From IMG/VR virus record IMGVR_UViG_3300034358_000003: a stretch of DNA of 36,997 nt; one strand, 5' to 3'. The position numbers were made by a program, and so were the translations under genes. Below are positions 7,243 through 20,444 of the stretch, in pieces. The DNA is from an uncultured virus (IMG/VR IMGVR_UViG_3300034358_000003). Lineage: Duplodnaviria; Heunggongvirae; Uroviricota; Caudoviricetes. How positions within the stretch are numbered: the first letter of the stretch is position 1; every line of letters starts with the position of its first letter. The notes beneath the pieces were generated by a model. That model did not search any database. It saw only the letters and a list, made by a program, of their open reading frames with translations, and had not been told where the DNA came from.

Positions 7243-7318
7243 TGGTGCATTCTCATGGTATCGATCCATGTCATCTGGGTTTTCAAGCCAGTGCTTCTAC
7301 CTAGTTAGCTTAGAATGC
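7243..7318 (-). tRNA. tRNA-Phe(GAA)
   Basis: GCATTCT/AGAATGC acceptor, loop TTGAAAA, encoded CCA; C31-C39 mismatch. Confidence 0.85.
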
Positions 7319-7322
7319 GAAT

Positions 7323-7416
7323 TGGTGGCCCATTCAGTTCATTGTGCTTTCGTCGTCTCAAGGAACGCTGTATAACACAAACATCTGCCAGATGCTGAAT
7401 ATATTATTTTAGGCCA
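7323..7416 (-). ncRNA. CCA-ended non-cloverleaf RNA
   Basis: TGGCCTA/TGGGCCA stem then CCA; inner TTCAG/CTGAA and TGTGTT/AGCACA pairings; no T-loop. Confidence 0.45.
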
Positions 7417-7421
7417 TTGTT

Positions 7422-7493
7422 TGGAGCAGAATGTCAGAATCGAACTGACCTCATCAGCTTGGAAGGCTGGGCGCTCACCTTGAGCAATCCTGC
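7422..7493 (-). tRNA. tRNA-Gly(TCC)
   Basis: Loop CTTCCAA, GTTCGATT T-loop, U73-CCA. Confidence 0.9.
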
Positions 7494-7500
7494 TTTTGTT

Positions 7501-7575
7501 TGGAGTATCTTGTTGGAATTGAACCAACCTAACCGGGTTTGCAATCCGGCACCTTAGCCTCTCGGACAAAGATAC
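7501..7575 (-). tRNA. tRNA-Cys(GCA)
   Basis: Loop TTGCAAA, GTTCAATT T-loop, U73-CCA. Confidence 0.9.
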
Positions 7576-7583
7576 ATTATGTT

Positions 7584-7661
7584 TGGTAGGGCACCTCGGA
7601 CTCGAACCGAGAAGCTCCTGATTCTAAGTCAGGAAGGTAGACCAATTCCCTTCAATGCCCC
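7584..7661 (-). tRNA. tRNA-Leu(TAG), short variable loop
   Basis: CCTGA-CTTAGAA-TCAGG; GGTTCGAGTCC; CCA; no long variable arm. Confidence 0.85.
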
Positions 7662-7676
7662 AATAGTCTTCTAAAT

Positions 7677-7749
7677 TGGTGTGAGGCTGGGTACTGACCC
7701 CAATCCTTCGTTTCACAGACGAAGTTCCTAACCATCGAACTACCTCACC
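7677..7749 (-). tRNA. tRNA-His(GTG), atypical
   Basis: TTCGT-CTGTGAA-ACGAA; T-loop GTCAGTA is non-canonical; 5' end overlaps HNH stop codon. Confidence 0.65.
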
Positions 7750-8159
7750 ATTGTTCTCAATTTGTGGTGTTCACGTCTATGACAGTTTGAACACAGCACA
7801 ATACATTTTCTTATCTCAGCACGTAAGACTTCAAGAGAACCACCAATCAACGAAGCTGGGTTGGCGTCCTTTCCATCAGGGTCTACATGGTGCAGATCAA
7901 GCACTACGGTGTCAGCTTCTCCACAGTGGGAGCACTTACACATCCGTTTATACCTGTCAACCAAACCCTTGTTACGAGCTTTAATTGTTTGCCTTGTTGC
8001 CTTGACTTTGGCTCTGCGTGTTTCAGAGCCAGCGTACCAACCAATGTTTCCAGCCTTATTGCAAGCTTTGCATCGGTTTTGATAGCCGTCAGGCTTAGAT
8101 GATGATTTATAGAACTCTGTCTTTGGTTTGTCAGTTTCACACTTACTACAGAACTTCAT
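7740..8159 (-). CDS. HNH endonuclease (free-standing, homing-type)
   Basis: CxxC pairs, LDLHHVD and LCSNCHRREH motif; embedded in tRNA array. Confidence 0.85.
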   Translation of the reverse strand: MKFCSKCETDKPKTEFYKSSSKPDGYQNRCKACNKAGNIGWYAGSETRRAKVKATRQTIKARNKGLVDRYKRMCKCSHCGEADTVVLDLHHVDPDGKDANPASLIGGSLEVLRAEIRKCIVLCSNCHRREHHKLRTMVR

Positions 8160-8304
8160 CACGCATCTTAATTTCTTCTTGAGCTTCTTTGAATGCTTGC
8201 TTATCCATCAGTTTAGGCTTCCAGTTCAAGTGATCACAACAAGGGCAGTACGAGCCATTGCGTTTCAATCTTGCTATCCTTGGCTCTCTGATTCTAACCT
8301 TCAT
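8146..8304 (-). CDS. Small basic hypothetical protein (52 aa, CPCC)
   Basis: AGGAG RBS before ATG 8304; overlaps HNH start. Confidence 0.6.
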   Translation of the reverse strand: MKVRIREPRIARLKRNGSYCPCCDHLNWKPKLMDKQAFKEAQEEIKMRDEVL

Positions 8305-8321
8305 CTTAGCACTCCTATATT

Positions 8322-8395
8322 TGGTGGACCGTCGGGGAGTCAAACCCCGCCTTCTACGGTGCAAGCGTAGCGAACTATCGAAATTCTTACAGCCC
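8322..8395 (-). tRNA. tRNA-Ala(TGC)
   Basis: CTACG-CTTGCAC-CGTAG; G3.U70 identity pair; CCA. Confidence 0.85.
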
Positions 8396-8399
8396 AAAT

Positions 8400-8473
8400 T
8401 GGTCTAGATGGGTGGAGTTGAACCACCGCCACAGGCTTCCAAAGCCAGTACGCTACCGTAACGCTTCATCTAG
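8400..8473 (-). tRNA. tRNA-Pro(TGG)
   Basis: Loop TTTGGAA, GGTTCAACTCC, CCA. Confidence 0.9.
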
Positions 8474-8495
8474 TTAAATCATTTTACATCTTAAT

Positions 8496-8584
8496 TGGTG
8501 CGTCATGGTCGGAATCGAACCACGCAGTCTTGGACACCGGGTTTACAGCCCAGCGGGAATCCCAGTCCCCATAAATCACGACGC
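8496..8584 (-). tRNA. tRNA-Tyr(GTA), irregular D region
   Basis: CTGGG-CTGTAAA-CCCGG; long variable region; GGTTCGATTCC; CCA. Confidence 0.75.
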
Positions 8585-8590
8585 TTTGTT

Positions 8591-8667
8591 TGGCAGGTAA
8601 TAGAGGATTCGAACCTCCCATCTTGTGATTAACAGTCACAGACCAACACCTAGTCAGATCATTACCT
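8591..8667 (-). tRNA. tRNA-Asn(GTT)
   Basis: TGTGA-CTGTTAA-TCACA; G73-CCA. Confidence 0.85.
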
Positions 8668-8736
8668 ATAATTCTGATAGAGACTATATTTAGACAGCAC
8701 ACTCTATCTGGCTGTACCCGTGGGGAGCACGGTGTT

Positions 8737-8792
8737 TGGAGACGGGATTAGAACGGCTCTACGTTCACATTAAGCTGGCATGTAGCCCCATC
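8737..8792 (-). ncRNA. 56-nt CCA-ended mini-RNA
   Basis: GATGGGG/TCCCGTC 7-bp stem + T + CCA; inner GAACG/CGTTC hairpin. Confidence 0.4.
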
Positions 8793-8798
8793 ATTGTT

Positions 8799-8874
8799 TG
8801 GTTGCGGACGTGAGAATCAAACTCACCGTATTCAGCTTATGAGGCTGCTGTGTCCATCAGTTCACCTGACCGCA
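8799..8874 (-). tRNA. tRNA-Met(CAT) (elongator or Ile2 type)
   Basis: Loop CTCATAA; paired 1-72 and no three G-C pairs, so not an initiator; CCA. Confidence 0.8.
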
Positions 8875-9246
8875 TTAAATCTTGTACTCCGAATATTTGT
8901 CGTTGCCAACTATGATCTGATGCTTCACTATTATCTCAGTGCTTGGTATCCAATACTCAGAACCATCAGCAGTCAATACGTACAAAATATCGCAAGAGTT
9001 ACTGTCAAAGTTTTTATGAGTGTACAGCGAAGAACTCTTCAAGTCAACCCTGTATCCACCATATTTACCTTCACATCTGGAAGTCTTTACCTGAACTCGT
9101 TTCAAACTGCCGTCATCAATAATCAAGTCATAGGACTGTGAGTCATTGAGAGGCAAGCTTACAGTGTAACCCTTCATGGTTGAAAAGGCTATACAGCGTC
9201 CCATACCAACATTACCCTGCATCTTTGTGTTTTCCTGAGACAGCAT
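8875..9246 (-). CDS. PD-(D/E)XK endonuclease (homing-type)
   Basis: P..DSQSYDLIID..RVQVKT motif; AGGAG RBS; within tRNA array. Confidence 0.8.
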   Translation of the reverse strand: MLSQENTKMQGNVGMGRCIAFSTMKGYTVSLPLNDSQSYDLIIDDGSLKRVQVKTSRCEGKYGGYRVDLKSSSLYTHKNFDSNSCDILYVLTADGSEYWIPSTEIIVKHQIIVGNDKYSEYKI

Positions 9247-9260
9247 AAGACTCCTTCATT

Positions 9261-9334
9261 TGGTCGCCAGAGAAGGTAACGCTCCTTCGTTTCGGAGTTA
9301 TCAGCTCCACGTTCTACTTTTGAACTATCCGGCA
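9261..9334 (-). tRNA. tRNA-Ile(GAT)
   Basis: TGGAG-CTGATAA-CTCCG; T-loop AGCGTTA atypical; CCA. Confidence 0.8.
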
Positions 9335-9341
9335 ATTTGTT

Positions 9342-9416
9342 TGGTAGTCACTAGTGGGATCGAACCACTCTAAAAGGCTTCGTAGACCTTTGCCTAATCC
9401 AATCGGCCAAGCGACT
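9342..9416 (-). tRNA. tRNA-Arg(ACG)
   Basis: AAGGT-CTACGAA-GCCTT; GGTTCGATCC; CCA. Confidence 0.9.
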
Positions 9417-9422
9417 ATTGTT

Positions 9423-9496
9423 TGGTGCCCCATCACAGAATCGAACTGCGTTCTCAGCGTTACAAAGGCCGAGTAATACCAATATACTAAAAGGGC
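9423..9496 (-). tRNA. tRNA-Thr(TGT)
   Basis: Loop TTTGTAA, GTTCGATT, CCA; C31-C39 mismatch. Confidence 0.85.
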
Positions 9497-9599
9497 GGAA
9501 TTTGGTTTGTTGTAGTGGGTCATTAAAGCCACTGCTGTTGTTCCAGACCAACTCACTCATCTGGCAGACTCAAGCTCCGAATTGCCTTCGGGCTGGATT

Positions 9600-9675
9600 T
9601 GGCGGCTCATAGGGAATTCGAATCCCTCCTTCCTGATAGACAGTCAAGCGTGCTAACCGCTAACACTAATGAGCC
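9600..9675 (-). tRNA. tRNA-Asp(GTC)
   Basis: CTTGA-CTGTCTA-TCAGG; G73-CCA. Confidence 0.9.
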
Positions 9676-9679
9676 ATGT

Positions 9680-9756
9680 TGGTACTCCCACAGGGATTCG
9701 AACCCTGTTCCCCTGATTGAAAGTCAGGAATCCTAGACCAGATAGACGATGGGAGC
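9680..9756 (-). tRNA. tRNA-Glu(TTC)
   Basis: CCTGA-CTTTCAA-TCAGG; GGTTCGAATCC; CCA. Confidence 0.9.
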
Positions 9757-9764
9757 ATTAATCT

Positions 9765-9893
9765 TTAGTTGCCAGAAACAGGATGCTTATCCTTGTTGCG
9801 GCCTTTGTTCGGATGACGACCTTTGCTGTCTTTCAAGCGTGTCTTGTCAACCGGAGCATGTTCTTTTGTTGCATCGTATGGACGTTGTGCCAT
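9765..9893 (-). CDS. 42-aa basic peptide (MAQRPYDATK...PVSGN), not in ORF track
   Basis: AAGGAG RBS and its own promoter; manual translation. Confidence 0.65.
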   Translation of the reverse strand: MAQRPYDATKEHAPVDKTRLKDSKGRHPNKGRNKDKHPVSGN

Positions 9894-9926
9894 CTCTTTC
9901 TCTCCTTTTGTGTAATTCATATGAGT

Positions 9927-9955
9927 ATTAAAACATGGGATTCAGTATCTGTCAA
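9927..9955 (-). promoter_or_regulatory. Internal sigma70-type promoter in tRNA array
   Basis: TTGACA-17 nt-TTTAAT with extended TG. Confidence 0.65.
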
Positions 9956-9987
9956 CCACTATTTTAAATTCTTTTGCACTATCTTGT

Positions 9988-10064
9988 TGGTAGCCCTACT
10001 TGGATTCGAACCAAGTCTATCAACTTAGAAGGATGATGTGCTAATTCCCTTACACTATAAGGCC
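9988..10064 (-). tRNA. tRNA-Arg(TCT)
   Basis: Loop CTTCTAA; GGTTCGAATCC; CCA. Confidence 0.9.
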
Positions 10065-10072
10065 ATATAAAT

Positions 10073-10150
10073 TGGCGGGCCAGCTAGGAATCGAACCCAG
10101 TCCGCAAGGATTTGGAATCCCGCATGCATTTGCCATAACAACCCAGACCC
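10073..10150 (-). tRNA. tRNA-Trp(CCA)
   Basis: Loop TTCCAAA; GGTTCGATTCC; G73-CCA. Confidence 0.8.
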
Positions 10151-10151
10151 T

Positions 10152-10382
10152 TTATTTCGTTTGTTGCACTTTGCTGATCAAGCCAAGATTTTTGTGGAGT
10201 TGATCATATCGTTGCTTCTCTTCTGCGTCCATCATATCAACGTGGTACTCTCTGCAACATTCACAGTAGAACACACTATTGAGACGGTAGCAAGCAGTTT
10301 TTAAAGCTTTCAGTCTGTGCGGTGTGAGCTTTGCCAGCTCTACTTCATCAAACTGCACATCCATTGCTTCGCTAGATTTCAT
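10152..10382 (-). CDS. Hypothetical protein (YCECC motif)
   Basis: AGGAG RBS before ATG 10382. Confidence 0.65.
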   Translation of the reverse strand: MKSSEAMDVQFDEVELAKLTPHRLKALKTACYRLNSVFYCECCREYHVDMMDAEEKQRYDQLHKNLGLISKVQQTK

Positions 10383-10495
10383 GATCAACTCCTATTAGAT
10401 TCGAAGGAGACATTTATAACACGCAGTCTCCAGTGCGTCAAGTCATGTGTTGGTTACATGACAACATCCCAAGGCGCTTGAAGCTTCAGGTTGTT

Positions 10496-10614
10496 TGGTT
10501 TGAATGACTCAAGGTTACGAGTAGTGGACACTGCCCCTCCTGTAGTCGTTCTGCTGTTTTATCTCCACAACAATAGCAGACACTTCGGCTATAAGGCAAG
10601 GCCAGTCATTCAAA
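10496..10614 (-). ncRNA. 119-nt rod-like CCA-ended RNA
   Basis: Perfect 11-bp terminal stem TTTGAATGACT/AGTCATTCAAA directly followed by CCA; nested TGCCTT/GGGGCA and TCTGCT/AGCAGA stems. Confidence 0.55.
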
Positions 10615-10616
10615 TT

Positions 10617-10692
10617 TGGAAGAGGATGCTGGAATCGAACCAGCCTAAACGGAGTCAAAGTCCGGTGCCTAACGCCAATCGGCCAACCCTCA
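10617..10692 (-). tRNA. tRNA-Gln(TTG)
   Basis: Loop CTTTGAC; GGTTCGATTCC; CCA. Confidence 0.85.
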
Positions 10693-10839
10693 ATTAATTA
10701 GATCCGAGAGCGTCATCCAGATGGCCATCCTTCAGTTGCTCTCTAGTCACGTTTCATCCGCTTTGTGAACCACACCCTTTCAGGTGCCCGCCGAGGCTTG
10801 GGAGGGAATCGAACCCTAACGCGATTACTTTGTGATGTT

Positions 10840-10913
10840 TGGTGCTTCGTGAAGGAATTGAACCTCCGTCTGCTGCGTGTAAAGCAGCGGCCCTACCATT
10901 AGACGAACGAAGC
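10840..10913 (-). tRNA. tRNA-Val(TAC)
   Basis: GCTGC-TTTACAC-GCAGC; CCA. Confidence 0.9.
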
Positions 10914-10921
10914 ATGTATCT

Positions 10922-11008
10922 TGGTGGGGATAATAGGAGTCGAACCTACATGACCTCACGGCCCACAGGGTTTGAACCTGCTGCGAATACCAGTTCCGCC
11001 ATATCCCC
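10922..11008 (-). tRNA. tRNA-Leu(CAA)
   Basis: GCAGG-TTCAAAC-CCTGT; long variable arm; CCA. Confidence 0.9.
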
Positions 11009-11015
11009 GTTTGTT

Positions 11016-11105
11016 TGGAGGCGAGTGTGGGATTCGAACCCACGGAGCCATTTCTGACTCGCTAGTTTTCTAAACTAGAGCAATCGTCCACTCTACCAAC
11101 TCGCC
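11016..11105 (-). tRNA. tRNA-Ser(AGA)
   Basis: CTAGT-TTAGAAA-ACTAG; long Ser-type variable arm; GGTTCGAATCC; U73-CCA. Confidence 0.85.
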
Positions 11106-11207
11106 GGAATTTAGATCAGCTTAATTGGGACTCTTACCCCTGCAATGCATCAAGACTCGCTGACTCATTCTTGTGCAGTTTTTCATATCGGGAGCGACCC
11201 GAGCATT

Positions 11208-11295
11208 TGGCAGTAGATGTCAGATTCGAACTGACGGGACTGTTACATCCTACGGATTAGCAATCCGTTGCTTTCGGCCTCTCAGCCAATCTACT
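11208..11295 (-). tRNA. tRNA-Ser(GCT)
   Basis: ACGGA-TTGCTAA-TCCGT; long variable arm; G73-CCA. Confidence 0.9.
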
Positions 11296-11300
11296 ATGTT

Positions 11301-11426
11301 TGGTACGACAGAGTGGAATCGAACCACCCATCCGTTCCCCGCTAAAGGAACCTTAATGCATAAAAGACCCATACCACGCCTCAACCTCGTTTCGAACCGA
11401 CGAAGGATTGTGTTGCATTCTGCCGT
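11301..11426 (-). ncRNA. 126-nt tRNA-like RNA with canonical acceptor/T arm but expanded D region
   Basis: ACGGCAG/CTGTCGT + A + CCA; GGTGG-TTCGATT-CCACT; no 7-nt anticodon loop; second GGTTCGAA motif inside. Confidence 0.65.
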
Positions 11427-11432
11427 ATTGTT

Positions 11433-11508
11433 TGGTGAAACGCCAAGGAATCGAACCTTGCAAACTCAGATTAAAAGTCTGATGCCTAAACCGATCGGCC
11501 TGCGTCTC
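11433..11508 (-). tRNA. tRNA-Lys(TTT)
   Basis: TCAGA-CTTTTAA-TCTGA; GGTTCGATTCC; CCA. Confidence 0.9.
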
Positions 11509-11989: not shown

Positions 11990-12184
11990 TTAATTCTCTT
12001 TTAGTGGCATTGGACTTGTTGCACCATCAACTGGATATCGTCCGCACACATACTCTCGTTCTGTATATGAATTGTATACAAGAAATCTGCACACACTACA
12101 GAGGTCTTCTTCTTTCTGTGCGAGCTTATTCCAAGCCGGACTATCATTATTGATCAGCGGTACATCGCAGCACTTGCATCTCAT
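11990..12184 (-). CDS. Small Cys-rich hypothetical protein (possible Zn finger)
   Basis: CKCC...CSVC; AAGGA RBS. Confidence 0.6.
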   Translation of the reverse strand: MRCKCCDVPLINNDSPAWNKLAQKEEDLCSVCRFLVYNSYTEREYVCGRYPVDGATSPMPLKEN

Positions 12185-12280
12185 TGTTAGGTATCCTTAT
12201 ATTATTTAGGGTTATTTCATACAATCTCCTTATGAATCAGTTATTTAGGTGTTTGTATGTATTGGTTATTGTATTTGATT

Positions 12281-12570
12281 TCTCATGACGCTGAGTTTCG
12301 TATTGGAAGATAGAACTGTCCCAAGGAAAGCCATACTGGAAACCCAGCCTCGACCTACCTTGGTTCTATCTTCCCACATCTCATGACGCTTGAGATCGTG
12401 ATTGGCCTGCATTGGCAGGAGATGGCTTCCCATCAGACTCTGATCATTCCACCTTTCGGTGTAGTCGCTACGCTTTAATCAGATTAGAACTCAGCTTGCC
12501 CAGTAGCTTCCTCTTCATAGGCATGTACCCTGATGGCCGGTGAGTGCATTCGACATATCTCTCCATCAGT
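12281..12570 (-). ncRNA. Candidate ~290-nt highly structured RNA (or DNA origin element)
   Basis: About ten nested inverted repeats starting at the expected TSS of the 12577-12605 promoter; no long ORF. Confidence 0.5.
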
Positions 12571-12576
12571 TTTTCC

Positions 12577-12605
12577 ATACTAACATTACAATACGCCCAC
12601 GTCAA
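12577..12605 (-). promoter_or_regulatory. Leftward sigma70-type promoter
   Basis: TTGACG-17 nt-TAGTAT with extended TG. Confidence 0.7.
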
Positions 12606-12618
12606 GTCCAAAATGAGC

Positions 12619-12646
12619 TTGACAGAACAGGAATCTATGTTAATAT
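12619..12646 (+). promoter_or_regulatory. Rightward sigma70-type promoter (back-to-back with previous)
   Basis: TTGACA-16 nt-TAATAT with extended TG. Confidence 0.65.
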
Positions 12647-12678
12647 CGGGACTTAATCAATCAAACAAGGAGAACCCC

Positions 12679-13101
12679 ATGACCGATTATGTTGACGTAG
12701 TGGAACACAACCCCATCGTCTTCGTCAAGGCCATCACAGAAAAATTAGCTGAAGGTTACGTTGTACAGAACACCATTGCAGGTTTCCCAACCTTTGGAGC
12801 TGGTGTCAACTTCGTAAGACTCTTTAAGGGTGAGCCACGCTCTGGTGTGATCCTCCCAGAAGGCTTTACAGGCATGATTGAACACTATGAGCCAATGCCC
12901 TTCGTCCTGCTGCTTGAAAGCGCTGTACGGGCCGGATACAGGTTCAAGGATAGTGGTGCACACTTTATCGACGAACGCAGCTTCAAGAGTGTTCAGATGG
13001 AACTTGTGAAGGACGAACCAAAAACACCAGCAAAGAAAGCTGCTCCAAAGAAAGAGCTGAAAGCTGAACCAACTATTGATGAATTGAAAGGAGATGAATA
13101 A
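12679..13101 (+). CDS. Hypothetical protein
   Basis: AAGGAG RBS before ATG 12679. Confidence 0.75.
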   Translation: MTDYVDVVEHNPIVFVKAITEKLAEGYVVQNTIAGFPTFGAGVNFVRLFKGEPRSGVILPEGFTGMIEHYEPMPFVLLLESAVRAGYRFKDSGAHFIDERSFKSVQMELVKDEPKTPAKKAAPKKELKAEPTIDELKGDE

Positions 13102-16073: not shown

Positions 16074-16303
16074 GTATGACAATTGCAGCAGTAAGTATTA
16101 AAACAGAGTCTGGTGATGACTACCTGTTCCTGTATGACGAACTTGACAGCCCAAGTGAACTTGTGGAGCTTATTGAGGGGTCTATGGGTGAAGAGTTGGC
16201 GTACGCTTGGAGTATTGATGTGCAGTGCCTATATGGTGACTGTGAAGCCTATGGCGAAGCATTGCGTAGTCGTCGTGACGAACTTATGGGAGAGGACGAA
16301 TGA
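16070..16303 (+). CDS. Acidic hypothetical protein
   Basis: AGGAGG RBS, ATGA overlap. Confidence 0.7.
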   Translation: MSMTIAAVSIKTESGDDYLFLYDELDSPSELVELIEGSMGEELAYAWSIDVQCLYGDCEAYGEALRSRRDELMGEDE

Positions 16304-17457
16304 TCAAGACACTTTACGGGCTGGACAAGAAAGGCGAGATGAAGGTTTGGACGATCACAACTTCTACCGCTGGTGAAATTACCATCAGCCATGGCAAGCT
16401 TGGTGGTAAGATGATCGTCAAGAATGAGCACATCACTGAAGGCAAACAAGGCCGCTCACTTGGTGAGCAAGCCGATCTTGAAGCCAAAGCTCGCATCAAG
16501 AAGCAGGAAGACAAGAACTACCGTGATAATCAGGCTGATCTTGCTAATCTTGATATCTTGGCTATGCTCGCTGCTGACTACCGTAAACGCGGTAAGAGTG
16601 TTGAGTTCCCATGCTTCGGTTCTGACAAGTACGACGGTGTTCGTGCATTGGCGAAGAAGCGTAATGGTGTTGTGACGATTGAGTCTCGTACTTCCCAGAT
16701 TTACGATATTCCACATATCCACGAAGCTCTGACCATTCATATGCAAGACGGCGACATCTGGGATGGTGAAATCTATCTGCATGGTGAAGTGCTGCAAGAC
16801 ATTACGTCTGCTGTTGGCCGCACTAACACTCAGGCTAAGATCGACGCTGCTCAACGCAAGTATGAGAAGGCTGTTGGTGATGAGAAGATTGAACTGGCTT
16901 ATGCTGAACTTGTAGAAGCCAAGCTGATTGCTGAGATTCGCCCTAAGCTGGAGTTCCACATTTTCGATGTGCACTCTGACAAGACGTTCTATGAGCGTGT
17001 AAGTGATCTTGAAGAGCTTGCTGCGATCCCTGTAGTATCGCCTTGCATTCAGATCACCCAATACGTTTGGGTTGCTGATGAAGCTGACATGAAGGTCAAG
17101 CACGACGATTCTGTTGACCGTGGTTACGAAGGCTTGATGCTCCGCAACTTCAAAGGTGTGTACGAATCTGGCAAGCGCTCTACAGACTTGCAGAAGTACA
17201 AAGAGTTTGTAGACGCTGAGTTTGAGATTCTTGATGTACTGCCTGACAGTGATGAAGGCTCTCGATTCCTTGTGCGAAACAACTTGAACGACAGAACGTT
17301 CACTGTTACACTGGGCTCTATGGCTCAACGAGCTGAGTATCTGGCAAACAAAGAGCTTTACATTGGCAAGATGCTTACTGTAAGATACCAGTCTCGCTAC
17401 AAGAAGACTAAACTTCCCCAGTTCCCAACTGGTGTTGTAATCCGTGATTATGAATAA
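16300..17457 (+). CDS. ATP-dependent DNA ligase
   Basis: KYDGVR (motif I), WDGEIY, IFDV, YEGLMLR, GKRS..L.KYK and C-terminal PQFP. Confidence 0.92.
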   Translation: MIKTLYGLDKKGEMKVWTITTSTAGEITISHGKLGGKMIVKNEHITEGKQGRSLGEQADLEAKARIKKQEDKNYRDNQADLANLDILAMLAADYRKRGKSVEFPCFGSDKYDGVRALAKKRNGVVTIESRTSQIYDIPHIHEALTIHMQDGDIWDGEIYLHGEVLQDITSAVGRTNTQAKIDAAQRKYEKAVGDEKIELAYAELVEAKLIAEIRPKLEFHIFDVHSDKTFYERVSDLEELAAIPVVSPCIQITQYVWVADEADMKVKHDDSVDRGYEGLMLRNFKGVYESGKRSTDLQKYKEFVDAEFEILDVLPDSDEGSRFLVRNNLNDRTFTVTLGSMAQRAEYLANKELYIGKMLTVRYQSRYKKTKLPQFPTGVVIRDYE

Positions 17458-19368: not shown

Positions 19369-19542
19369 ATGAAAGTTTGGGTTGTGACAAACGTCGAGCT
19401 TGGCTGGGATTGCATCGTTGGTATTTTCGATCCAGCCAGCTTAACCAAGCAAGAAATTGAAGAAAGATTTCCCAAACGGAGTGGTTATATAGTACACTGG
19501 GGTCCGCATACAGTTCACAATGATTTTGAGGAGTTTGAATAA
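19369..19542 (+). CDS. 57-aa hypothetical protein (LGWD family, copy 2), not in ORF track
   Basis: GGAG RBS; MKVWVVTNVELGWDCIVGIFD. Confidence 0.7.
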   Translation: MKVWVVTNVELGWDCIVGIFDPASLTKQEIEERFPKRSGYIVHWGPHTVHNDFEEFE

Positions 19543-20444
19543 TGTTTGAAGCACTGATTAAGGCTGGACTGGTAAAGCAGAAGCGTTATGAGAATGGCCT
19601 TTCGGTATTCAAGTACGCTCGGAAGGTGTTCTACGACGCGCTCTGGAACACTGATCCTCTACTGTTGGAAGCCCGTGGGATTGTCATTGATGATGCTGGC
19701 AATAAGGTGATCTGGCCTTTCACCAAGGTCTTCAACTACAAAGAGAACAACGCTGGCGTAAACCTGATGATGGATACCCCAATCATCGCTCCACGTAAAG
19801 TGAACGGTTTCATGGCAGCATGTCGTTACTGGAACGGTGAGTTGATTGTTTCGACAACTGGCTCTCTGGACTCGGACTTCGCTGTTCTGGCTCGCTCTTA
19901 CATTGAGAAGTTGAACGGTATTGAGCGTGACTCGACCAATATGACACTACTCTTTGAAATCTGTGACCCTTCAGACCCTCACATTGTCGAGGAAGAAGCT
20001 GGTGCATACTTGATCGGGGCACGCCTCATGCAAGGCTGTGACCATGAAGGTGAGATGTTGAACGAAGCTCAGCTTCATGGCTACGCTGAATCACTTGGTG
20101 CTAAACGCCCTGAAGTATTCCGTGGGACGTTTGGACAGCTTTGGCATATGGTGCGTGAGTGCCGACACGAAGGTTGGATGGTGATTCTCGCTGAGACTGG
20201 TGAAACAGTGATGAAAATCAAGTCGCCACATTACCTATCCAAGAAATTCCTCATGCGAATGAGTGACAAGAAAGTGGACAACATGTTCGACTGCAAGGAA
20301 GAATTCATGAAAACGTTGGACGAAGAGTTCTACGCCATCGTGAGTTATATCACTCGCTGGTGGGACAAAGAGAAGTGGAAAAACACTTCTGAAGCTGATC
20401 GCCGTGCTGTGATCGAAAAATACTTTGAAAAGGAAGCTCAATAA
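19542..20444 (+). CDS. RNA ligase (T4 Rnl1-like)
   Basis: EARGIV, PFTKVFNY, KVNG (motif I), TLLFE, PHIV, EGW, KIKS..Y motifs. Confidence 0.85.
   Translation: MFEALIKAGLVKQKRYENGLSVFKYARKVFYDALWNTDPLLLEARGIVIDDAGNKVIWPFTKVFNYKENNAGVNLMMDTPIIAPRKVNGFMAACRYWNGELIVSTTGSLDSDFAVLARSYIEKLNGIERDSTNMTLLFEICDPSDPHIVEEEAGAYLIGARLMQGCDHEGEMLNEAQLHGYAESLGAKRPEVFRGTFGQLWHMVRECRHEGWMVILAETGETVMKIKSPHYLSKKFLMRMSDKKVDNMFDCKEEFMKTLDEEFYAIVSYITRWWDKEKWKNTSEADRRAVIEKYFEKEAQ

Follow-up and report, generated by a model that had tools for sequence, protein, structure and literature searches.

A promoter-fused structured leader RNA with two pseudoknots at operon heads of Otagovirus-type Pseudomonas phages and their relatives

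A 36,997-nt window of viral DNA, which is part of an Otagovirus-type Pseudomonas phage with phage VCM as its nearest record (87% identity over the region), carries a covariation-supported structured RNA of approximately 300 nt at the 5' end of a leftward transcript. In coordinates of the whole window, which are used throughout, the RNA extends from 12576 to 12281 on the minus strand, which is the RNA sense, and its promoter reaches 12605. The RNA sits in a 496-nt divergent gap, with rightward genes beyond 12680 and leftward genes below 12184, and falls into four parts: Module I, which is the 148-nt 5' domain; a pair of small variable hairpins; a second domain, Domain II; and the direct repeats X1 and X2, which flank Domain II. 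Our comparative analysis established the structure and strand of this leader, its fusion to a promoter, its copy number, the paralogy of its copies and their position at operon heads.

Fold, strand and anatomy of the leader RNA

The minus strand from 12572 to 12276 (297 nt) folds at -101.6 kcal/mol with z = -3.14, a level matched by one of 200 shuffled sequences, and the plus strand of the same stretch gives z = -2.18; over the 496-nt gap, z is -3.21 on the leftward strand and -1.75 on the rightward one. An earlier note, made from the letters of the window alone, had placed a densely base-paired element at 12190..12570 and read it as an undescribed noncoding RNA (ncRNA) or late-gene leader, or else as a replication origin or packaging signal. 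Its position is borne out by this folding beyond chance and by covariation, but the span has to be corrected to 12576-12281, and the AT-rich part of the proposed element lies outside the fold. A blastn search of the gap returned 184 phage records with identities down to ~70%, and the element is thus kept in related phages, a check that the note had proposed.

In a 23-copy alignment, compensatory changes were found in every local stem named in the earlier note, i.e., CTGATGG/CCATCAG (helix P1), TGCCTA/TGGGCA (P2), TCTGATTA/TGATCAGA (P3), CACC-GAAA-GGTG (P3a), the GATGG/CCATC and CCTGC/GCAGG hairpins, and the 12-bp GGAAGATAGAAC/GTTCTATCTTCC stem at the base of Domain II. In this alignment 96.3% of the cells pair and 19 of the 29 pairs change on both sides; none of 500 shuffles reached this level, and slid controls gave 3-6 pairs. 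A covariance model of Module I (R1) collected 70 copies, 60 of them distinct, and found a single copy in the window (169 bits, E 3e-45). Across the 60 distinct sequences, 96.2% of the cells pair and 26/34 pairs change on both sides, with 0/500 shuffles as good and 10-16 pairs in slid controls. In the proposed pairs, G-U cells are far commoner than A-C cells (100 versus 0 in Module I, 104 versus 6 in the 3' half, 204 versus 6 in total), indicating that the fold is confined to the leftward-transcript sense; G-U-tolerant covariation, proposed in the earlier note as a sign of RNA over DNA, therefore favours RNA. The pseudoknots and GNRA-type loops of the leader fit a free RNA as well.

Module I (12576-12430 on the minus strand, 148 positions) contains three helices and two pseudoknots. 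P1 pairs CUGAUGG (12569-12563) with CCAUCAG (12536-12530), is supported by covariation, and encloses the invariant pairs GAG/CUC and UG/CA together with a bulge (ACCG) and a hairpin that is optional and mostly has a GAAA loop. The P2 hairpin (12522-12498) presents the conserved loop UAUGAAGAGGAAGCUAC, and the joining stretch J2/3 (AAGCUGAGUUCUAAU, 12497-12483) leads to P3, in which UCUGAU (12483-12478) pairs with AUCAGA (12444-12439). P3 has the inner loop UAAAGCGUAGCGAC and encloses the P3a hairpin (12461-12450); a conserved GGAAUGA is also held in Module I. Covariation further defines two pseudoknots. In PK1, GCU of J2/3 (12495-12493) pairs with AGC of the P3 inner loop (12474-12472), and in PK2, GCUAC of the P2 loop (12507-12503) pairs with GUAGC (12471-12467). 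All three pairs of PK1 and all five of PK2 change on both sides among the 60 distinct sequences, in which 93.8% and 89.3% of the respective cells pair, and relatives carry PK2 as GCCAC/GUGGC, GCUGC/GCAGC or GAUAC/GUAUC. Both pseudoknots lay outside the model from which the alignment was built, yet they covary, and both were recovered by an unbiased stacked-covariation scan. A loose column-pair scan over Module I and Domain II yielded 184 pairs, most of which are artefacts that reflect relatedness; its stack-filtered version recovered the known helices plus one 4-bp candidate.

One pairing of the earlier note did not survive. It had joined GCTGAGTT and AACTCAGC over a long range, but the eight pairs are complete in just 4 of 34 leaders, 68% of the cells pair and the changes are uncompensated. 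This helix (GCUGAGUU/AACUCAGC as RNA) was accordingly dropped; the GCU of the rejected stretch pairs instead with AGC at 12474-12472, in the covarying pseudoknot PK1.

The 3' half, also on the minus strand, starts with two small hairpins joined by UCUCC, both of which are missing from some of the B copies described below. The first, GAUGG-GAAG-CCAUC (12434-12421), varies among relatives as GACGC/GCGUC, GAGGG/CCCUC or GAGC/GCUC, and in the second, CCUGC-CAAU-GCAGG (12419-12406), 4/4 predicted pairs change on both sides, or 5/5 in the stack scan. Domain II (12374-12305) is a long irregular hairpin with a 12-bp basal stem, a CCAAGG/CCUUGGG element, a variable apical hairpin and the invariant stretches AGGC and GUAUGGC; among 34 leaders, 16 of its 24 predicted pairs change on both sides. 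With a second covariance model, built for Domain II (R2), 58 of the 70 Module I copies were seen to be followed immediately by the domain; the remaining 12 form a divergent group in which Domain II looks related by eye. Near GUAUGGC, the inner loop of Domain II shows a C-G pair, NAG opposite AU and then a G-U pair. This loop looks like a possible 11-nt GAAA-tetraloop receptor.

Two copies of CTCA-(A)GCGTCA-TGAG had been noticed previously and are located at 12380-12390 and 12282-12292. They belong to the repeats X1 (ACGAUCUCAAGCGUCAUGAG, 12399-12380), which forms a small CUCA/UGAG hairpin, and X2 (ACGAAACUCAGCGUCAUGAG, 12301-12282), which equals X1 minus one base after CUCA. Among relatives, X1 and X2 are exact repeats of 9-14 nt within similar stretches of ~20 nt, spaced 93-116 nt apart, and the extra base in X1 recurs in nearly all leaders. 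The X cores are diverse between phages but constant within one leader, i.e., they change in concert: among 25 distinct leaders, 21 have an X1 for which no X2 scores higher than the one in the same leader, and the match score is 10.8 within a leader versus 7.2 between leaders. When runs of at least 7 contiguous pairs were sought, no part of the leader emerged as a conserved partner of the X cores.

Promoters, paired copies and operon context

The RNA is fused to a near-consensus sigma70-type promoter at 12605-12577 on the minus strand (TTGACG at 12605-12600, a 17-nt spacer and TG-extended TAGTAT at 12582-12577), and the leftward start is predicted at ~12570, one base ahead of P1. Among 63 distinct upstream regions, 50 have TTGACN-16/17-TANNNT ending 7-9 nt upstream of P1, which places the RNA start within about one base of this helix, and similarity across genera starts exactly at the RNA start. 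The promoter scan of the window also gave a second, rightward sigma70-type promoter at 12619-12646. At 12600-12624 the two promoters are thus arranged back to back, 13 nt apart in this window, and their -35 boxes form the inverted repeat TGTCAAG-NN-CTTGACA in most relatives.

Public RNA data comprised four runs, all as assembled contigs. Contigs from these RNA libraries cover a PAK_P1-type leader of the second, B kind (locus L098) from 1505 (contig X6) and 1528 (contig X12) to 1780-1785. Contig X6 extends into 3115 nt and gives no cover over 1382-1504 of the locus, where contigs X1 and X11 run through. As the two contig starts lie 23 nt apart and the libraries possibly contain DNA, these contigs show neither the start site nor expression.

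Exactly two strong copies of the leader were found in 10 of 11 related phage records tested, i.e., VCM (by blastn), PAK_P1, ZGC, XD2, NoPa, Y1-MI, KIL3, psageK4, PPSC2 and Bobbio. The window holds the copy that we call A; by analogy with VCM, the second copy, B, is expected ~34 kb to its left, outside the window. A and B alike show the full architecture. Twelve genomes or contigs carry both, and in these A-B identity is 0.56 within a genome and 0.565 between genomes, and A-A and B-B identities are 0.69 and 0.63, respectively. The equality of A-B identity within and between genomes indicates old paralogy, with no homogenisation between the two copies. Within one genome, the X cores of the A and B leaders differ in VCM, XD2, NoPa and KIL and are alike in PAK_P1 and ZGC; since they mostly differ, a single trans-acting factor cannot explain the repeats.

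Two major operons begin with the element in Pakpunavirus, Otagovirus, Flaumdravirus and related phages. In viral contigs, 45 of 46 loci matched R1, the exception being L092. A 16-mer scan of viral contigs gave 35 loci, of which six (L024, L026, L034, L035, L039 and L017) match over at least 65 nt by blastn; the other 29 showed just the scanned word or nothing, as chance predicts. A degenerate-pattern scan of genome contigs gave 32 loci, with L130 and L133 as the only true copies; in ten others the pattern core alone matched (E 0.005-0.93). L130 lies on a 27.8-kb contig binned as a Thaumarchaeota metagenome-assembled genome (MAG) and has a full leader (R1 100 bits, R2 88 bits) with a sigma70 promoter; it is most likely a phage contig in the wrong bin. 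The divergent relatives come from a Marinobacter MAG contig (L133) and IMG/VR contigs. At L133 a hairpin with a U-run (1447-1479) precedes the RNA and an intrinsic terminator (1788-1815) follows it, and at L106 a hairpin with a U-run (1440-1480) lies ahead of the RNA; no sigma70 promoter is visible at either divergent locus. In deposited records, short 'hypothetical protein' genes lie over the leader (VCM_00140, REC_47, psageK4 gp052-054, PN09_052 and KIL3_0035), and as their strand and position vary between records, they are probably mis-annotations. An 'sRNA' feature of phage YS35 within a B copy is a 13-nt automatic annotation and is uninformative.

Behind copy A, a G-poor, A/C-rich spacer with little predicted structure (12233-12281, minus strand) corresponds to the AT-rich tract of the earlier note. 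This tract is indeed present (12100-12299 has a GC content of 0.365 and an AT skew of -0.32), but it is found outside the fold and behind A copies only. The spacer of 16 A leaders has a C content of 0.15-0.31 and a G content of ~0.09-0.14 in 15 of them (0.17 in KIL3), and B leaders are without such a tract. In the leader alignment, the spacer is followed by a strong Shine-Dalgarno sequence (AAGGAG) and a two-codon mini open reading frame (ORF), AUG AAA UAA (12232-12212, the ORF at 12220-12212, minus strand), which belong to the 5' region of A copies in Otagovirus-type phages, outside the fold. AUG-NNN-UAA is retained in 8 of the 16 aligned A leaders. The first gene downstream of the leader (11990-12184, minus strand) encodes a 64-aa CxxC...CxxC protein (phrog_10364, of unknown function) and is retained after the A leaders in phages of the Otagovirus and Pakpunavirus types. 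It is followed leftward by a gene for a 105-aa protein, 19 tRNA genes (7422-11508) and the genes for terminase, portal, protease and major head protein. Copy A therefore stands at the head of two small genes plus an array of 19 tRNAs, and precedes a 4.7-kb array that is mostly untranslated. The 'late-gene leader' of the earlier note is right only in a loose sense, as the terminase gene is preceded by a terminator-like site at 7099-7083 and a further promoter-like one at 6779-6752. Among tRNA calls at 7246-11508 on the minus strand, ARAGORN gave 19 and Rfam 18; 7246-7318 was called by Rfam only, and His (7678-7749) and Ala (8322-8395) by ARAGORN only. Outside the called tRNAs, repeats resembling tRNA 3' ends (TTGG...GGAATCGAACC) at 10072-10097 and 11300-11325 possibly mark tRNA genes that are decayed or unusual.

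Copy B heads small early genes and then replication genes. In PAK_P4, gp041 starts ~200 nt past Module I of this copy and the operon runs to the primase/helicase gene gp054 and the DNA polymerase gene gp055; gp041 is about equally expressed early and late, with a log2 fold change of -0.07 (PMC5563952). In copy B of PAK_P1, X2 adjoins the Shine-Dalgarno sequence. An RNA ligase is the second gene of the rightward operon diverging from copy B in VCM (40.3-41.9 kb) and in PAK_P1, and genes for an Rnl1-like RNA ligase (19542-20444) and for a DNA ligase (16300-17457) lie in the window itself.

A possible action in cis and its alternatives

We propose, at a probability of about one in three, that the leader acts in cis on the transcribing polymerase, following a logic like that of the put RNAs of phage HK022 without being a member of the put family. 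With the sigma70 promoter fused to the RNA, the first helix would begin at the first transcribed bases. The nascent RNA would then fold while leaving the polymerase, forming P1, P2, P3 and the two pseudoknots and subsequently Domain II between X1 and X2, and the folded leader would act in cis on the same elongation complex or transcript. Elongation might in this way be kept processive, by anti-pausing, antitermination or anti-Rho action, through a long operon, which in the case of copy A is largely untranslated. HK022 putL and putR would thus be matched in logic by an unrelated and much larger RNA. A cis role is favoured by paralogs that have long been kept apart, each with its own promoter and operon. 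Among the cis options, control of elongation is suggested as the best by the absence of a terminator or a Shine-Dalgarno trap after the RNA, together with the position of copy A before a mostly untranslated array.

The put RNA attaches to the zinc-binding domain of beta-prime and counteracts termination as well as pausing in cis. In the HK022 study (PMC9378689), put is a ~70-nt RNA whose two stem-loops form a V and whose stem I contains a minor-groove triplex, two diverged copies lie behind early promoters, putL pairs from base 3 (A3), and both intrinsic and Rho-dependent termination are suppressed over 10 kb. By this account, putL/putR and the leader are alike in that a genome has two diverged copies, which follow promoters for the host polymerase and head long operons, and in that the RNA is structured from the first bases (A3 in putL, P1 at ~+1 in the leader), with no dedicated protein evident. 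The hosts differ, as the phages carrying the leader infect Pseudomonas and relatives. No convincing -10-like pause hexamer of the putL kind was seen in the early transcribed region when it was read by eye. The lambda nut sites and the boxA/boxB elements of rrn operons are likewise paired leader elements accompanying long or untranslated operons, and X1 and X2 are, like them, short hairpins after a conserved linear stretch. X presumably bears a weak resemblance to boxA. In contrast to nut, however, X differs between A and B leaders of one genome, which would be intolerable for a single N-like factor, and neither nut nor boxA/boxB has a counterpart of Module I or Domain II.

Several observations weigh against control of elongation in cis. 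The leader is four times larger than put (~300 versus ~70 nt), and instead of two stem-loops with a triplex it has a three-helix 148-nt core, two pseudoknots and a 70-nt second hairpin; R1 gave no match over the whole HK022 genome, its best hit being 33 nt long at 5.5 bits (E 2.3). A simple scan of the minus strand gave no terminator-like site within the A operon (12280-7100), the site at 7099-7083 being at its end, so there is no intrinsic terminator that needs overriding, and the anti-Rho role is one that we purely infer. The concerted X1/X2 repeats have no role in a put-like leader model. In the related phage PAK_P3 (Nankokuvirus), neither Module I (R1) nor Domain II (R2) was found. Moreover, 11 divergent members are without a sigma70 promoter, 7 of which carry a hairpin with a U-run just upstream, and the L133 relative also has an intrinsic terminator ~30 nt past the RNA. 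With such flanking terminator-like hairpins, the divergent relatives look like stand-alone RNA genes.

This last feature is what would be expected if the leader were cut from the 5' end of the transcript as a stable ncRNA acting in trans, for example by binding a host protein (RNA polymerase, an RNase or a defence factor, for instance) and diverting it, a reading that we consider doubtful though worth keeping in mind. It would also suit the compact ornate fold with many invariant unpaired bases, the 5' end lying within P1, the unstructured A/C-rich tract behind A copies, which is suited to RNase cutting, and the ncRNA candidates derived from 5' untranslated regions (UTRs) that are reported in other Pseudomonas phages (PMC10914365). 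On the other hand, no terminator was seen behind the RNA in the main-group leaders inspected, and the scan of the window gave no intrinsic-terminator-like site between the RNA and the downstream genes. Two paralogs tied for long to their own operon heads would not be needed for action in trans, and the leader is absent from the RNA annotation based on PAK_P4 RNA-seq, where the only phage sRNA row found is 91948-92050.

A little less plausible is a stabilising and processing module in cis, in which the folded 5' end would block 5'-end-dependent decay of the long primary transcript while RNA turnover is raised by the phage, and X1 and X2, as identical processing junctions, would release Domain II as a piece of ~99 nt. 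The start of P1 at ~+1, the nearly constant X1-X2 spacing, and the agreement of X1 with X2 within a leader despite their difference between A and B of one genome, which points to a constraint inside the molecule, would all be accommodated, and host RNA metabolism is reported to be massively altered when cells are infected with PAK_P3 or PAK_P4 (PMC4933390). Nevertheless, a plain hairpin would suffice to protect a 5' end, and two pseudoknots with invariant loops exceed that need. No excised or joined form was seen in the contigs, which showed only a strain indel and drop rare forms, and X has no conserved pairing partner. A more speculative version, to which we give smaller odds, is a self-organising, ribozyme-like RNA with Module I as its core for recognition or catalysis, from which Domain II would be excised at X1 and X2; the product could be a small RNA, stable or circular, and phage RNA ligases would perhaps help to rejoin the ends; we grade with it a 300-nt analogue of put that would ride on the polymerase.

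Invariant unpaired bases in a pseudoknotted junction at the start of a 5' UTR are typical of aptamers, and X2 adjoins the Shine-Dalgarno sequence in copy B of PAK_P1, so Module I could be a riboswitch-like sensor that binds a small molecule or ion and sets expression of the operon. This is improbable: in the main-group A and B leaders inspected and in the window scans, neither a terminator nor a conserved helix sequestering the Shine-Dalgarno sequence lies behind the RNA, the first gene of A copies is more than 90 nt further on, past the unstructured tract, the downstream genes have no common metabolic theme, and no Rfam riboswitch matched at E up to 10.

A transcription-primed replication origin, at which the structured transcript would hybridise persistently to its template and prime DNA synthesis, is just as improbable. 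Transcript-primed origins are represented by ColE1 RNA II and by T4 and T7 origins, and the leader shares with ColE1 RNA II, T4 oriF/oriG and the T7 primary origin a promoter, a structured transcript and, in A copies only, an AT-rich tract. The promoter is strong, the cumulative GC skew reaches its minimum near 12.7 kb, copy B heads replication genes, and the internal direct repeats X1/X2 could also be cited. However, the skew minimum coincides with the switch in transcription direction, by which the signal is confounded. Persistent RNA-DNA hybrids favour G-rich RNA, whereas the RNA of the spacer downstream is G-poor; B copies are without the AT-rich tract, no antisense regulator was seen, and the pseudoknot covariation with more than 200 G-U pairs indicates a free folded RNA. 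The origin suggested in the earlier note therefore receives no direct support. Finally, the packaging signal it offered as a further option, or a stretch coding for small proteins, is very improbable, since the element occurs twice, at operon heads, terminal direct repeats have been reported for relatives, and the short ORFs annotated here in several records vary in strand and position, the AUG of the window's 55-aa ORF being missing from close relatives and the loop indels not being multiples of three.

Relation to described RNAs and implications

A search of the whole window with Rfam 15 returned tRNAs only. At 12100-12750, with E up to 10, the best scores were 21.3 bits for MIR3444 (threshold 80) and 20.3 bits for SCARNA18 (threshold 40); in this Rfam check, which the earlier note had proposed, no family thus reached its gathering threshold. 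Our literature search found no description of the leader RNA. A catalogue of ~10,000 candidate viral structured RNAs exists (PMC10690425), and the motif strings are not in its searchable supplementary text, which does not cover the IMG/VR alignment files 1 and 2, so that a partial entry is possible there. The claim of an undescribed ncRNA or leader is hence upheld by strong covariation, a fold specific to the leftward strand, promoter fusion (50/63) and the lack of an Rfam family.

The ncRNAs published for phages of the same broad group are, like the leader, phage-encoded and in some cases derived from 5' UTRs (PMC4933390, PMC5563952, PMC10914365). The PAK_P3 small RNAs (sRNAs) sRNA1 and sRNA2 are different RNAs, whose sequences are without the motif, and PAK_P4 sRNA1 is also a different RNA, whose locus at 91948-92050 lies away from the leaders (PMC5563952). 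The SrpA palindrome (PMC5945682) is an unrelated motif. In size class, pseudoknots and many invariant unpaired bases, the leader is comparable to GOLLD, ROOL, OLE, raiA and riboswitch aptamers. The likeness to such large ornate RNAs includes the possible tetraloop-receptor-like loop of Domain II. Unlike GOLLD, ROOL, OLE and raiA, the leader has no match in Rfam 15, is fused to promoters at operon heads and is present as two paralogs per genome.

The leader is thus a large two-pseudoknot RNA with very strong comparative support that is absent from Rfam 15, and its region should be annotated as RNA, replacing the inconsistent 'hypothetical proteins'. The phage group that carries it includes many candidates for phage therapy and crop biocontrol. 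If the RNA acts instead in trans or processes itself, it would represent a new functional RNA class. If it does reprogramme the polymerase, it would be the second known class of RNA-only antiterminator, far more elaborate than the first, and would explain how long operons are driven from single host promoters in these phages, for which we found no report of a dedicated antiterminator.

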